Shown here: positions 7,448 through 21,131 of the stretch, piece by piece
Layout of the letters: each line of letters starts with the position of its first letter
Position numbering within the stretch: the stretch's first letter is position 1
Sequence record: MZ375237.1
DNA from: Escherichia phage T7
DNA: 39,218 bases
Reading direction: 5' to 3' (one strand)
Notes under the pieces: model-generated
Told to the model about the DNA's origin: nothing
Seen by the model: only the letters and a program-made list of their open reading frames with translations
Database searches by the model: none
Program-made: the position numbers and the translations under genes

Positions 7448-8029
7448 TGGGACTGTTAGATGGTGAAGCCTGGGAAAAAGAAAACCCGCCAGTACAAGCA
7501 ACTGGGTGTATAGCTTGCTTAGAGAAAGATGACCGTTATCCACACACCTGTAACAAAGGAGCTAACGATATGACCGAACGTGAACAAGAGATGATCATTA
7601 AGTTGATAGACAATAATGAAGGTCGCCCAGATGATTTGAATGGCTGCGGTATTCTCTGCTCCAATGTCCCTTGCCACCTCTGCCCCGCAAATAACGATCA
7701 AAAGATAACCTTAGGTGAAATCCGAGCGATGGACCCACGTAAACCACATCTGAATAAACCTGAGGTAACTCCTACAGATGACCAGCCTTCCGCTGAGACA
7801 ATCGAAGGTGTCACTAAGCCTTCCCACTACATGCTGTTTGACGACATTGAGGCTATCGAAGTGATTGCTCGTTCAATGACCGTTGAGCAGTTCAAGGGAT
7901 ACTGCTTCGGTAACATCTTAAAGTACAGACTACGTGCTGGTAAGAAGTCAGAGTTAGCGTACTTAGAGAAAGACCTAGCGAAAGCAGACTTCTATAAAGA
8001 ACTCTTTGAGAAACATAAGGATAAATGTT

Positions 8030-8438: not shown

Positions 8439-9137
8439 ATGGCTAAGAAGATTTTCACCTCTGCGCTGGGTACCGCTGAACCTTACGCTTACATCGCCAA
8501 GCCGGACTACGGCAACGAAGAGCGTGGCTTTGGGAACCCTCGTGGTGTCTATAAAGTTGACCTGACTATTCCCAACAAAGACCCGCGCTGCCAGCGTATG
8601 GTCGATGAAATCGTGAAGTGTCACGAAGAGGCTTATGCTGCTGCCGTTGAGGAATACGAAGCTAATCCACCTGCTGTAGCTCGTGGTAAGAAACCGCTGA
8701 AACCGTATGAGGGTGACATGCCGTTCTTCGATAACGGTGACGGTACGACTACCTTTAAGTTCAAATGCTACGCGTCTTTCCAAGACAAGAAGACCAAAGA
8801 GACCAAGCACATCAATCTGGTTGTGGTTGACTCAAAAGGTAAGAAGATGGAAGACGTTCCGATTATCGGTGGTGGCTCTAAGCTGAAAGTTAAATATTCT
8901 CTGGTTCCATACAAGTGGAACACTGCTGTAGGTGCGAGCGTTAAGCTGCAACTGGAATCCGTGATGCTGGTCGAACTGGCTACCTTTGGTGGCGGTGAAG
9001 ACGATTGGGCTGACGAAGTTGAAGAGAACGGCTATGTTGCCTCTGGTTCTGCCAAAGCGAGCAAACCACGCGACGAAGAAAGCTGGGACGAAGACGACGA
9101 AGAGTCCGAGGAAGCAGACGAAGACGGAGACTTCTAA
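8439..9137 (+). CDS. 2.5: Gene 2.5, ssDNA-binding protein
   Basis: 232-aa ORF with acidic C-terminal tail DEDDEESEEADEDGDF. Confidence 0.95.
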   Translation: MAKKIFTSALGTAEPYAYIAKPDYGNEERGFGNPRGVYKVDLTIPNKDPRCQRMVDEIVKCHEEAYAAAVEEYEANPPAVARGKKPLKPYEGDMPFFDNGDGTTTFKFKCYASFQDKKTKETKHINLVVVDSKGKKMEDVPIIGGGSKLKVKYSLVPYKWNTAVGASVKLQLESVMLVELATFGGGEDDWADEVEENGYVASGSAKASKPRDEESWDEDDEESEEADEDGDF

Positions 9138-9557
9138 GTGGAACTGCGGGAGAAAATCCTTGAGCGAATCAAGGTGACTTCCTCTGGGTGTTGGGAGTGG
9201 CAGGGCGCTACGAACAATAAAGGGTACGGGCAGGTGTGGTGCAGCAATACCGGAAAGGTTGTCTACTGTCATCGCGTAATGTCTAATGCTCCGAAAGGTT
9301 CTACCGTCCTGCACTCCTGTGATAATCCATTATGTTGTAACCCTGAACACCGTTCCATAGGAACTCCAAAAGAGAACTCCACTGACATGGTAAATAAGGG
9401 TCGCTCACACAAGGGGTATAAACTTTCAGACGAAGACGTAATGGCAATCATGGAGTCCAGCGAGTCCAATGTATCCTTAGCTCGCACCTATGGTGTCTCC
9501 CAACAGACTATTTGTGATATACGCAAAGGGAGGCGACATGGCAGGTTACGGCGCTAA
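9138..9557 (+). CDS. 2.8: Gene 2.8, HNH-endonuclease-like protein (GTG start)
   Basis: HNH-type motif HSCDNPLCCNPEH; clear paralog of gene 7.7. Confidence 0.85.
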   Translation: MELREKILERIKVTSSGCWEWQGATNNKGYGQVWCSNTGKVVYCHRVMSNAPKGSTVLHSCDNPLCCNPEHRSIGTPKENSTDMVNKGRSHKGYKLSDEDVMAIMESSESNVSLARTYGVSQQTICDIRKGRRHGRLRR

Positions 9558-9987
9558 AGGAATCCGAAAGGTTGGAGCGTTTCGCTCTGGCCTAGAGGAC
9601 AAGGTTTCAAAGCAGTTGGAATCAAAAGGTATTAAATTCGAGTATGAAGAGTGGAAAGTGCCTTATGTAATTCCGGCGAGCAATCACACTTACACTCCAG
9701 ACTTCTTACTTCCAAACGGTATATTCGTTGAGACAAAGGGTCTGTGGGAAAGCGATGATAGAAAGAAGCACTTATTAATTAGGGAGCAGCACCCCGAGCT
9801 AGACATCCGTATTGTCTTCTCAAGCTCACGTACTAAGTTATACAAAGGTTCTCCAACGTCTTATGGAGAGTTCTGCGAAAAGCATGGTATTAAGTTCGCT
9901 GATAAACTGATACCTGCTGAGTGGATAAAGGAACCCAAGAAGGAGGTCCCCTTTGATAGATTAAAAAGGAAAGGAGGAAAGAAATAA
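9538..9987 (+). CDS. 3: Gene 3, endonuclease I (junction-resolving)
   Basis: 149-aa MAGYGAKGIRKVGAFRSGLEDKVSKQLESKGIKFEYEE...; start 48 nt inside the longer track ORF. Confidence 0.9.
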   Translation: MAGYGAKGIRKVGAFRSGLEDKVSKQLESKGIKFEYEEWKVPYVIPASNHTYTPDFLLPNGIFVETKGLWESDDRKKHLLIREQHPELDIRIVFSSSRTKLYKGSPTSYGEFCEKHGIKFADKLIPAEWIKEPKKEVPFDRLKRKGGKK

Positions 9988-10505: not shown

Positions 10506-12604
<2,099 letters not shown>

Positions 12605-15763: not shown

Positions 15764-16120
15764 ATGAACGAAAGACACTTAACAGGTGCTGCTTCTGAAA
15801 TGCTAGTAGCCTACAAATTTACCAAAGCTGGGTACACTGTCTATTACCCTATGCTGACTCAGAGTAAAGAGGACTTGGTTGTATGTAAGGATGGTAAATT
15901 TAGTAAGGTTCAGGTTAAAACAGCCACAACGGTTCAAACCAACACAGGAGATGCCAAGCAGGTTAGGCTAGGTGGATGCGGTAGGTCCGAATATAAGGAT
16001 GGAGACTTTGACATTCTTGCGGTTGTGGTTGACGAAGATGTGCTTATTTTCACATGGGACGAAGTAAAAGGTAAGACATCCATGTGTGTCGGCAAGAGAA
16101 ACAAAGGCATAAAACTATAG
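15764..16120 (+). CDS. 5.3: Gene 5.3, unknown function
   Basis: 118-aa ORF MNERHLTGAASEMLVAYKFTKAGYTVYYP... Confidence 0.85.
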   Translation: MNERHLTGAASEMLVAYKFTKAGYTVYYPMLTQSKEDLVVCKDGKFSKVQVKTATTVQTNTGDAKQVRLGGCGRSEYKDGDFDILAVVVDEDVLIFTWDEVKGKTSMCVGKRNKGIKL

Positions 16121-18815: not shown

Positions 18816-19115
18816 ATGGGTAAGAAAGTTAAGAAGGCCGTGAAGAAAGTCACCAAGTCCGTTAAGAAAGTCGTTAAGGAAGGGGCTCGTCCGGTTAAAC
18901 AGGTTGCTGGCGGTCTAGCTGGTCTGGCTGGTGGTACTGGTGAAGCACAGATGGTGGAAGTACCACAAGCTGCCGCACAGATTGTTGACGTACCTGAGAA
19001 AGAGGTTTCCACTGAGGACGAAGCACAGACAGAAAGCGGACGCAAGAAAGCTCGTGCTGGCGGTAAGAAATCCTTGAGTGTAGCCCATAGCTCCGGTGGC
19101 GGTATCAACATTTAA
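18816..19115 (+). CDS. 7.3: Gene 7.3, tail-associated protein
   Basis: 99-aa MGKKVKKAVKKVTKSVKKVVKEGARPVKQVAGGLAGLAGG..., lysine-rich. Confidence 0.88.
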   Translation: MGKKVKKAVKKVTKSVKKVVKEGARPVKQVAGGLAGLAGGTGEAQMVEVPQAAAQIVDVPEKEVSTEDEAQTESGRKKARAGGKKSLSVAHSSGGGINI

Positions 19116-19128
19116 TCAGGAGGTTATC

Positions 19129-19521
19129 GTGGAAGACTGCATTGAATGGACCGGAGGTGTCAACTCTAAGGGTTATGGTCGTAAGTGGGTTAATGGTAAA
19201 CTTGTGACTCCACATAGGCACATCTATGAGGAGACATATGGTCCAGTTCCAACAGGAATTGTGGTGATGCATATCTGCGATAACCCTAGGTGCTATAACA
19301 TAAAGCACCTTACGCTTGGAACTCCAAAGGATAATTCCGAGGACATGGTTACCAAAGGTAGACAGGCTAAAGGAGAGGAACTAAGCAAGAAACTTACAGA
19401 GTCAGACGTTCTCGCTATACGCTCTTCAACCTTAAGCCACCGCTCCTTAGGAGAACTGTATGGAGTCAGTCAATCAACCATAACGCGAATACTACAGCGT
19501 AAGACATGGAGACACATTTAA
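19129..19521 (+). CDS. 7.7: Gene 7.7, HNH-endonuclease-like protein (GTG start)
   Basis: HNH-type motif HICDNPRCYNIKH; paralog of 2.8. Confidence 0.8.
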   Translation: MEDCIEWTGGVNSKGYGRKWVNGKLVTPHRHIYEETYGPVPTGIVVMHICDNPRCYNIKHLTLGTPKDNSEDMVTKGRQAKGEELSKKLTESDVLAIRSSTLSHRSLGELYGVSQSTITRILQRKTWRHI

Positions 19522-21131
19522 TGGCTGAGAAACGAACAGGACTTGCGGAGGATGGCGCAAAGTCTGTCTATGAGCGTTTAAAGAACGACCGTGCTCCCTA
19601 TGAGACACGCGCTCAGAATTGCGCTCAATATACCATCCCATCATTGTTCCCTAAGGACTCCGATAACGCCTCTACAGATTATCAAACTCCGTGGCAAGCC
19701 GTGGGCGCTCGTGGTCTGAACAATCTAGCCTCTAAGCTCATGCTGGCTCTATTCCCTATGCAGACTTGGATGCGACTTACTATATCTGAATATGAAGCAA
19801 AGCAGTTACTGAGCGACCCCGATGGACTCGCTAAGGTCGATGAGGGCCTCTCGATGGTAGAGCGTATCATCATGAACTACATTGAGTCTAACAGTTACCG
19901 CGTGACTCTCTTTGAGGCTCTCAAACAGTTAGTCGTAGCTGGTAACGTCCTGCTGTACCTACCGGAACCGGAAGGGTCAAACTATAATCCCATGAAGCTG
20001 TACCGATTGTCTTCTTATGTGGTCCAACGAGACGCATTCGGCAACGTTCTGCAAATGGTGACTCGTGACCAGATAGCTTTTGGTGCTCTCCCTGAGGACA
20101 TCCGTAAGGCTGTAGAAGGTCAAGGTGGTGAGAAGAAAGCTGATGAGACAATCGACGTGTACACTCACATCTATCTGGATGAGGACTCAGGTGAATACCT
20201 CCGATACGAAGAGGTCGAGGGTATGGAAGTCCAAGGCTCCGATGGGACTTATCCTAAAGAGGCTTGCCCATACATCCCGATTCGGATGGTCAGACTAGAT
20301 GGTGAATCCTACGGTCGTTCGTACATTGAGGAATACTTAGGTGACTTACGGTCCCTTGAAAATCTCCAAGAGGCTATCGTCAAGATGTCCATGATTAGCT
20401 CTAAGGTTATCGGCTTAGTGAATCCTGCTGGTATCACCCAGCCACGCCGACTGACCAAAGCTCAGACTGGTGACTTCGTTACTGGTCGTCCAGAAGACAT
20501 CTCGTTCCTCCAACTGGAGAAGCAAGCAGACTTTACTGTAGCTAAAGCCGTAAGTGACGCTATCGAGGCTCGCCTTTCGTTTGCCTTTATGTTGAACTCT
20601 GCGGTTCAGCGTACAGGTGAACGTGTGACCGCCGAAGAGATTCGGTATGTAGCTTCTGAACTTGAAGATACTTTAGGTGGTGTCTACTCTATCCTTTCTC
20701 AAGAATTACAATTGCCTCTGGTACGAGTGCTCTTGAAGCAACTACAAGCCACGCAACAGATTCCTGAGTTACCTAAGGAAGCCGTAGAGCCAACCATTAG
20801 TACAGGTCTGGAAGCAATTGGTCGAGGACAAGACCTTGATAAGCTGGAGCGGTGTGTCACTGCGTGGGCTGCACTGGCACCTATGCGGGACGACCCTGAT
20901 ATTAACCTTGCGATGATTAAGTTACGTATTGCCAACGCTATCGGTATTGACACTTCTGGTATTCTACTCACCGAAGAACAGAAGCAACAGAAGATGGCCC
21001 AACAGTCTATGCAAATGGGTATGGATAATGGTGCTGCTGCGCTGGCTCAAGGTATGGCTGCACAAGCTACAGCTTCACCTGAGGCTATGGCTGCTGCCGC
21101 TGATTCCGTAGGTTTACAGCCGGGAATTTAA
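19521..21131 (+). CDS. 8: Gene 8, portal (head-tail connector)
   Basis: 536-aa MAEKRTGLAEDGAKSVYERLKNDRAPYETRAQN... Confidence 0.95.
   Translation: MAEKRTGLAEDGAKSVYERLKNDRAPYETRAQNCAQYTIPSLFPKDSDNASTDYQTPWQAVGARGLNNLASKLMLALFPMQTWMRLTISEYEAKQLLSDPDGLAKVDEGLSMVERIIMNYIESNSYRVTLFEALKQLVVAGNVLLYLPEPEGSNYNPMKLYRLSSYVVQRDAFGNVLQMVTRDQIAFGALPEDIRKAVEGQGGEKKADETIDVYTHIYLDEDSGEYLRYEEVEGMEVQGSDGTYPKEACPYIPIRMVRLDGESYGRSYIEEYLGDLRSLENLQEAIVKMSMISSKVIGLVNPAGITQPRRLTKAQTGDFVTGRPEDISFLQLEKQADFTVAKAVSDAIEARLSFAFMLNSAVQRTGERVTAEEIRYVASELEDTLGGVYSILSQELQLPLVRVLLKQLQATQQIPELPKEAVEPTISTGLEAIGRGQDLDKLERCVTAWAALAPMRDDPDINLAMIKLRIANAIGIDTSGILLTEEQKQQKMAQQSMQMGMDNGAAALAQGMAAQATASPEAMAAAADSVGLQPGI

Follow-up and report, generated by a model that had tools for sequence, protein, structure and literature searches.

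Genes 2.8 and 7.7 of phage T7 are probably separately acquired, free-standing homing endonuclease genes, each encoding a predicted ββα-metal nuclease with a zinc loop and a C-terminal helix-turn-helix (HTH), and we propose homing as the way in which they came to occupy their sites. We analyzed a stretch of 39,218 nucleotides of Escherichia phage T7 DNA (sequence record MZ375237.1), called the window here. A preliminary description made from the letters alone had placed two similar open reading frames with GTG starts at 9138..9557 and 19129..19521, both wedged between essential genes. They are present exactly there, with the following surroundings:

9138..9557, + strand: gene 2.8, predicted HNH/His-Me-finger endonuclease of 139 aa with a C-terminal HTH, GTG start
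9538..9987, + strand: gene 3 (endonuclease I), which flanks 2.8 and has diverged strongly between T7 and phiA1122
19108..19116, + strand: left copy of the 9-bp direct repeat ACATTTAAT, at the end of gene 7.3, including its TAA
19129..19521, + strand: gene 7.7, predicted HNH/His-Me-finger endonuclease of 130 aa with a C-terminal HTH, GTG start
19514..19522, + strand: right copy of ACATTTAAT, at the end of 7.7, including its TAA and overlapping the gene 8 ATG

Both genes are tightly packed against their neighbours. The GTG of 2.8 abuts the stop codon of gene 2.5 (TAA, 9135-9137) and its final 20 nt overlap gene 3, whose start codon and Shine-Dalgarno sequence (GGGAGG) lie, in the junction alignment, within the 3′ end of 2.8. 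Gene 7.7 has a Shine-Dalgarno sequence (AGGAGG, 19119-19124) 4 nt upstream of its GTG, and its stop codon overlaps the ATG of gene 8 (TAATG). The 2.8 orthologs of Salmonella phage BP12A and Klebsiella phage vB_Kpn24-P1 have an ATG at the position of the 2.8 GTG, and a 7.7 ortholog has one at the position of 19129, so that both annotated starts are supported. A longer, 141-aa version of the 7.7 frame, starting at a GTG at 19096, was considered and rejected because it overlaps gene 7.3 and lacks a Shine-Dalgarno sequence, while the orthologs start at the position of 19129.

The window, a laboratory-derived T7, is collinear with the reference NC_001604 apart from a few point changes and two deletions, one inside genes 0.4-0.6 (reference ~1353-1903) and one that removes exactly gene 1.4 (reference 7608-7763). 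Because both deletions are upstream, NC_001604 coordinates in the 2.8 and 7.7 region equal window coordinates plus a constant 719 nt. The 2.8 and 7.7 regions themselves are 99.9-100% identical to T7 records. A 160-nt terminal repeat is found at both ends of the window. As a whole, the window is most similar to 'mutant T7' clones that were sequenced in a study of genome reduction by Cas9.

The homology of the two proteins is clear. BLASTP aligns gp2.8 and gp7.7 with 62 identities over 128 positions (48%, E=3e-35), far past chance, and every shared motif quoted in the preliminary description could be located (CWEWQG/CIEWTG, KGYG, HR, HxCDNPxC..H, GTPKxNSxDMVxKGR and YGVSQxTI). By their profile matches, both belong to a large phage family of HNH/His-Me-finger proteins. 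The PHROG 59 profile ('HNH endonuclease') recognizes gp2.8 (5e-27) as well as gp7.7 (2.6e-33). Pfam HNH_3 (PF13392) matches gp7.7 significantly (2.6e-13, 49.8 bits, gathering score 24.8); its match to gp2.8 (3e-3, 17.6 bits) falls below the gathering score, and that of zf-His_Me_endon to gp2.8 (5.7e-4) is also sub-threshold. A search with a profile built from both proteins retrieved 243 homologs at E<1e-5. In the alignment of 95 homologs, and in gp2.8 numbering, His59, Cys61, Asp62, Cys66 and His71 are invariant, and Cys18, Gly29, Tyr30, His45, Arg46, Asn63, Pro69, Leu72, Gly75, Asn80, Asp83 and Arg89 are conserved in at least 90%. With the family profile, I-HmuI is matched over its full length (E=8e-4). 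A single-sequence search of PDB sequences with gp7.7 returned only noise (best E=0.87), so that I-HmuI and I-PpoI become detectable by sequence only with the family profile.

Structure prediction agrees with this assignment. The AlphaFold (AF2) models are confident (pLDDT of 90.3 for gp2.8 and 92.8 for gp7.7) and have a common order of elements, a β-hairpin, a helix, two strands, a helix and three short helices, gp2.8 carrying one additional helix at its N-terminus. Both have the ββα-metal fold that characterizes the HNH/His-Me finger superfamily. I-HmuI and I-PpoI head the structural matches of both models, and a Foldseek search with gp2.8 again placed these two on top; they are followed by HTH domains (Tc3, IstA, DeoR, Hin), and Smad MH1 and NFI are also matched. 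The suggestion that the sequence around YGVSQxTI resembles an HTH is borne out by the models, in which it is part of a C-terminal three-helix module. The predicted layout is thus a ββα-metal nuclease at the N-terminus, braced by a Cys3His zinc loop of the I-PpoI type, and a three-helix HTH behind it:

9189..9377, + strand: nuclease core of gp2.8, residues 18-80, from the profile alignment to I-PpoI and conservation
9429..9527, + strand: three-helix HTH-like module of gp2.8, residues ~98-130, including YGVSQQTI
19399..19494, + strand: three-helix HTH-like module of gp7.7, residues ~91-122, including YGVSQSTI

The profile alignment places gp2.8 His59, Cys61, Cys66, His71 and Asn80 on I-PpoI His98, Cys100, Cys105, His110 and Asn119. 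In I-PpoI, His98 acts as the general base and Asn119 binds Mg, while zinc site 1 draws three of its four ligands from Cys100, Cys105 and His110. Moreover, gp2.8 His59 and Asn80, and their gp7.7 counterparts His48 and Asn69, align with I-HmuI His75 and Asn96. Among the 89-95 homologs compared at these positions the His is invariant and the Asn is conserved in at least 90%. We therefore predict that His59 of gp2.8 and His48 of gp7.7 act as general base, that Asn80 and Asn69, which are the Asn of GTPK(E/D)N, bind Mg, and that Cys18, Cys61, Cys66 and His71 of gp2.8 hold zinc. This changes how the HNH signature is to be read. The block HxCDNPxC...(E/K)H is indeed present, but its final His corresponds in the alignment to I-PpoI His110, a zinc ligand and not a catalytic residue. 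This His therefore most likely binds zinc, and the Asn of GTPK(E/D)N most likely binds the active-site metal.

Comparison with the two best structural matches shows that the T7 proteins join an I-PpoI-like active site and zinc brace to an I-HmuI-like overall layout. I-HmuI from Bacillus phage SPO1 (PDB 1u3e), a nickase, also consists of a nuclease followed by a C-terminal HTH. However, it is intron-encoded, 174 aa long and without a zinc site, whereas the T7 genes are free-standing and their products ~40 residues shorter. In I-HmuI the metal is held by Asp74 and Asn96. Asp74 is replaced by Leu or Met in the T7 proteins, which also carry Cys, Cys and His where I-HmuI has Asp, Asn and Asn. In the His-Cys box enzyme I-PpoI (PDB 1a73), encoded in a eukaryotic nuclear rDNA intron, the ligand pattern of zinc site 1 (Cys41/Cys100/Cys105/His110) is the one kept in gp2.8 as Cys18, Cys61, Cys66 and His71, but I-PpoI has no HTH. 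We see no counterpart of zinc site 2 of I-PpoI (Cys125/Cys132/His134/Cys138), nor of the tail through which I-PpoI forms a domain-swapped dimer; no conserved Cys or His follows Asn80 among the 95 homologs. Thus, although gp2.8 and gp7.7 resemble the I-PpoI core, they should not be filed as members of the His-Cys box family, because they keep only the pattern of zinc site 1 and end in an HTH.

The preliminary description called 2.8 and 7.7 paralogous, which holds in the sense of homologous genes within one genome but not in the sense of sister duplicates. We placed 95 family members in a neighbour-joining (NJ) tree. Of 200 bootstraps, 197 recovered the 2.8 clade and 186 the 7.7 clade, and none united the two; this is a distance tree from 144 alignment columns, so its deep branches are poorly resolved and the deep branching order is uncertain. 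The orthologs in the 2.8 clade are 63-96% identical and all ~139 aa long, and those in the 7.7 clade are 71-82% identical and mostly of 130 aa. Outside these clades, each T7 protein has other phage proteins that are as near to it as its T7 partner is, or nearer (49-52% versus 48% identity). In Przondovirus and Kayfunavirus phages, the nearest of these are encoded between genes 15 and 16, which specify internal virion proteins. Duplication within T7 was rejected on these grounds. Given that the two clades were never joined and that the closer relatives of each lie in other phages and at different loci, the sequences point to independent acquisition as the better reading.

T7 also encodes gp3.8, which, like other HNH_3 phage endonucleases (PHROG 59, 6254, 1872 and 4578), is small, free-standing and located between essential genes. 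Genes of the 3.8 type share with 2.8 and 7.7 a patchy distribution in T7-like phages and dispensability. gp3.8 itself matches HNH_3 (3e-15) and has weak similarity to gp7.7 (38% over 58 aa), but it falls in PHROG 4578 and is far more distant from gp2.8 and gp7.7 than these are from each other.

The homing-endonuclease reading gains support from the occupancy of the two sites in related phages. Both genes are frames between conserved genes that are present or absent at one and the same site among relatives, the pattern by which homing endonuclease genes are recognized. In T3, gene 3 starts at the stop codon of gene 2.5 and gene 8 starts 10 nt past gene 7.3, so T3 lacks both 2.8 and 7.7; 3.8 is likewise absent. 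Phage phiA1122, which is ~94% identical to T7 overall, lacks 2.8 and has 7.7 and 3.8. Between its genes 3 and 3.5 lies a third gene of the family, whose product shares 38-42% identity with gp2.8 and gp7.7. At the junction between genes 2.5 and 3 (2.5|3), 2.8 orthologs (73-74% aa identity) are found in Berlinvirus BP12A and in vB_Kpn24-P1, and at the junction between genes 7.3 and 8 (7.3|8), 7.7 orthologs (70-82% aa identity) are found in metagenomic T7-like contigs, in each case at the identical position.

The inserts are precise at both junctions, with zero spare intergenic DNA. In phiA1122 the sequence TAA-GTG-GCT-GGC is the stop of gene 2.5 followed by the start of gene 3. In T7 the same TAA-GTG opens 2.8, and gene 3 restarts 400 nt on, at ATG-GCA-GGT. 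The empty 2.5|3 site reads ...GACTTCTAAGTGGCTGGCACATACGC... in phiA1122 and ...GACTTCTAATGGCTGGCGCATACGC... in T3, and the empty 7.3|8 site of T3 reads ...AATATCTGAGGAGGACTGAATGGCTGA.... The 5′ end of gene 3 also differs with occupancy, encoding MAGYGAKG... in T7 and again in the 2.8 carrier BP12A, and (M/V)AG(T/A)YAAR... in phages without 2.8. At the other site, the two copies of ACATTTAAT, at 19108 and 19514, bracket the 7.7 cassette, each contains a stop codon, and they are the only two in the whole window.

In HK97-like phages, a packaging HNH protein is associated with terminase or portal. Such a role was considered for 7.7, which lies just upstream of the portal gene, and rejected, as T3 does without 7.7 and T7 tolerates its deletion or replacement.

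A second line of support for homing comes from the comparison of each gene with its flanks. Between T7 and phiA1122, 7.7 differs at 1 of 393 nt (99.7% identity) against a background of ~94-96%, and identity is still 98.8% over the initial 800 nt of gene 8. The opposite holds for two metagenomic contigs, L012 and L014, in which genes 6-7 and gene 8 are 91-99% identical to T7 (dS 0.2-0.46) and 7.7 is just 67-78% identical, with synonymous sites saturated in L012 (pS 0.80) and near saturation in L014 (pS 0.64, dS 1.42). In L012 this divergence stops at the limits of the 7.7 frame, and in L014 it reaches ~300 nt into gene 8. At the other locus, gene 3 is 74.3% identical between T7 and phiA1122, while its neighbours are 94-96% identical, and it is bordered by 2.8 in T7 and by another family member in phiA1122. 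The 2.8 orthologs of other genera have diverged about as much as their flanks, so long vertical residence fits 2.8 as well. As judged from these identities, the history of the gene is decoupled from that of its flanks for 7.7, and only weakly so for 2.8.

T4 provides the precedent for such a pattern. Its Seg and Mob endonucleases are encoded by intergenic genes that lie between conserved phage genes, are present or absent among relatives and spread by cutting the empty allele and co-converting its flanks. The peaks and troughs of identity around 7.7, together with the mosaic gene 3, fit this pattern and are the footprints expected of homing with co-conversion and allele replacement. The comparison has its bounds, in that the Seg proteins are GIY-YIG and the Mob proteins HNH enzymes of other subfamilies, and that their cleavage and homing are experimental, whereas 2.8 and 7.7 are known from sequence and models. 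A more speculative reading, which we regard as unlikely, is that the 7.3|8 junction is a battleground of 7.7 alleles, since flanks of ~95% identity can enclose 7.7 genes at or near synonymous saturation, whereas T7 and phiA1122 share an almost identical copy. Alleles would then have replaced one another repeatedly at a single site, those that differ in specificity might cut the junctions of their rivals, and ACATTTAAT would be a footprint of the insertion site. A second possibility, held at the same low probability, is that 2.8 and 7.7 also act as anti-defence factors that mask DNA ends independently of nuclease activity.

The mechanism that we propose for homing is as follows. gp2.8 and gp7.7, small and probably monomeric, would use their HTH to read a sequence that spans the empty junction. 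In a co-infected cell, the enzyme would nick or cut the empty 2.5|3 or 7.3|8 junction of a T7-like phage without the gene, and the T7 recombination machinery would repair the break from the gene-carrying genome, so that the ~400-bp cassette is copied into the empty junction along with part of its flanks. The sites of T7 itself would be protected, because the insert splits them. The nuclease activity, the choice between a nick and a double-strand cut, the target sequence and homing in present-day phages are all inferred here. The caveat that activity is not well established still stands, as the searchable literature yielded no assay of either protein, and hence neither a demonstration of DNA cleavage by gp2.8 or gp7.7 nor a target site.

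The same biochemistry could serve another purpose. If gp2.8 and gp7.7 were inter-phage weapons, they would cut co-infecting relatives chiefly to exclude them, with gene copying as a by-product. The mosaic patches seen between close relatives beside the inserts, in gene 3 and towards the 5′ end of gene 8, are compatible with this. Further, a BASEL phage HNH hinders relatives bearing its site (bioRxiv 10.1101/2025.09.07.674715), and one report, as cited in that preprint, concerns a phage homing endonuclease in interference competition. This proposal is nevertheless inseparable from homing by sequence alone, as it offers another selective rationale for one and the same mechanism, and we hold it to be very unlikely as the chief explanation.

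Neither 2.8 nor 7.7 is needed by T7 (deletion in bioRxiv 10.1101/2025.09.07.674715; genome-reduction studies, in which 7.7 was removed or substituted as a non-essential gene), which is what one expects of selfish elements. The preprint also bears on the main alternative, in which 2.8 and 7.7 would be domesticated anti-defence or DNA-binding factors that, for example, mask DNA ends or breaks from the GAPS4 DNase of the host, nuclease activity and homing being irrelevant or lost. Catalytically dead versions of T7 gp3.8 (H34A) and of the BASEL phage HNH (H77A) still blunt GAPS4 (Mahata et al., bioRxiv 10.1101/2025.09.07.674715), and T7 without 2.8, 3.8 and 7.7 is outcompeted by the wild type only when GAPS4 is present. 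As nuclease-dead gp3.8 still counters GAPS4, selection may act on DNA binding rather than on homing, and the purifying selection on 2.8 and 7.7, which extends over their full length including the HTH, agrees with such a role. However, of the three T7 genes, 3.8 alone was tested singly in that study. Across hundreds of homologs, little or no variation is seen at the catalytic His and Asn or at the zinc ligands, although pure DNA binding would have no need of them, and the patchy presence, same-site occupancy and decoupled histories point to mobility. We therefore consider an exclusively anti-defence function unlikely; the anti-defence and homing roles are in any case not mutually exclusive.

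Purifying selection likewise weighs on the idea that 2.8 and 7.7 are decaying, inactive relics of old insertions. Their being non-essential would suit relics, as would the scores of gp2.8 below the Pfam thresholds and the tolerance of an L72R change in gp2.8 by a laboratory lineage. Yet both frames are full length and can be aligned gap-free with their orthologs, with dN/dS values of 0.10-0.26 (2.8) and 0.08 (7.7), and the catalytic and zinc residues are invariant or almost so. Because of this selection signal a purely relic status is most improbable, and the same applies to the variant in which 7.7 arose from 2.8 by duplication within T7, given the bootstrap result and the nearer relatives of each gene elsewhere. 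Free-standing homing endonuclease genes remain the preferred reading for both.

The assignment of 2.8 and 7.7 as endonuclease genes was already known. In RefSeq NC_001604 the product of 2.8 is named 'endonuclease' and those of 3.8 and 7.7 'HNH endonuclease', engineered-T7 records carry '2.8: endonuclease' and '7.7: HNH endonuclease', and the 2025 preprint named 2.8, 3.8 and 7.7 as T7's homing endonucleases and deleted them (bioRxiv 10.1101/2025.09.07.674715). Our refinements are minor and comprise the non-sister relationship, the combination of an I-PpoI-type zinc loop with an I-HmuI-type layout, the sequences of the empty sites and the proposed replacement of 7.7 alleles. Whether these genes are retained through selfish homing, exclusion of competitors or the proposed anti-GAPS4 role is directly testable in the best-studied phage system, and the empty-site sequences of phiA1122 and T3, the 7.7 allele replacement and the mosaic gene 3 offer concrete substrates for such experiments.

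Finally, the window carries a variant of gp2.8:

9352..9353, + strand: dinucleotide change TA->GT relative to NC_001604, giving gp2.8 L72R (NPEHRSIGT in place of NPEHLSIGT)

The change adjoins the invariant His71 and affects a residue for which at least 90% of the 95 homologs have Leu, so gp2.8 may be impaired in this line. Many T7 clones passaged with Cas9 (CiPGr genome-reduced mutants) share this allele; clone MZ375240 lacks it, though 2.8 is at the same coordinate, 9138. An AGG lies 6-7 nt downstream of the changed bases, which places them in the seed region of a possible Cas9 protospacer, and an origin as a CRISPR-escape change is therefore plausible. T7 lines derived from Cas9-based genome reduction that carry L72R may thus not be wild type for 2.8.

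Gene 7.7 (19129-19521) and its flanks have decoupled histories, as seen when T7 is compared with phiA1122 (L005) and with L012 and L014, two metagenomic T7-like contigs that carry 7.7 orthologs at the 7.3|8 junction. T7 and phiA1122 differ at 1 of the 393 nt of the gene, with a background of ~5%. Between T7 and L012 or L014, identity in 7.7 is only 67-78%, with flanks at 91-99%. In L012 the diverged patch stops sharply at the start of gene 8; in L014 it takes in the first ~300 nt of that gene as well.

A search of the whole window for the 9-bp sequence ACATTTAAT returned two copies only, which enclose a 406-bp 7.7 cassette:

19108-19116, left copy of ACATTTAAT, where gene 7.3 ends, with the gene 7.3 stop codon inside the repeat
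19514-19522, right copy of ACATTTAAT, where gene 7.7 ends, with the gene 7.7 stop codon inside the repeat

A similar repeat (7/8 match) is retained in L012 and L014, whose 7.7 alleles are diverged. The pair may be the footprint of an insertion site, or it may reflect a constraint imposed by translational coupling to gene 8.

A patch of divergence is also found at gene 3, which encodes endonuclease I. Between T7 (9559-9983) and phiA1122 (L005 7941-8368) this gene is only 74% identical, while the neighbouring DNA is 94-96% identical. In T7 the patch borders on gene 2.8; in phiA1122 it borders on another member of the HNH family (L005 8369-8827).

T7 has two other small nuclease-like genes:

10506-10871, gene 3.8, T7's third HNH_3 gene (3e-15 in Pfam)
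15764-16120, gene 5.3, with a match to Pfam PDDEXK_5, PD-(D/E)XK endonuclease (1.1e-10)

The product of gene 3.8 is assigned to PHROG 4578, a different PHROG from that of gp2.8 and gp7.7, and has only distant similarity to gp7.7 (38% over 58 aa). Gene 3.8 is absent from the T3 genome compared here and is 100% identical between T7 and phiA1122. The product of gene 5.3 is labelled 'hypothetical' in RefSeq; given its PDDEXK_5 match, gene 5.3 would be a fourth small nuclease-like insert of T7. At this position, following the polymerase gene, T3 carries an unrelated HNH gene and phiA1122 has no gene.

Several differences distinguish the window from the reference T7 genome, NC_001604:

~1341-1352, deletion of reference ~1353-1903, within genes 0.4-0.6
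7044/7045, deletion of reference 7608-7763, exactly gene 1.4
15330, G to A, within gene 5
19087, G to A, which replaces an Arg of gp7.3 by His close to the C-terminus

The two deletions show that the window comes from a T7 lineage that was engineered or has evolved. The C-terminal region of gp7.3 reads ...SVAHSSGGG in the window and ...SVARSSGGG in phiA1122. In addition, sequence comparison with NC_001604 shows a change of TA to GT at 9352-9353, which replaces Leu72 of gp2.8 by Arg. At least 90% of homologs have Leu at this position, which adjoins the invariant His71. The L72R allele is also carried by 'CiPGr' mutants, genome-reduced T7 derivatives passaged under Cas9. Because an AGG (9359-9361) lies 6-7 nt 3' of the change, L72R may be a Cas9 escape mutation, and one that may impair the enzyme as well.
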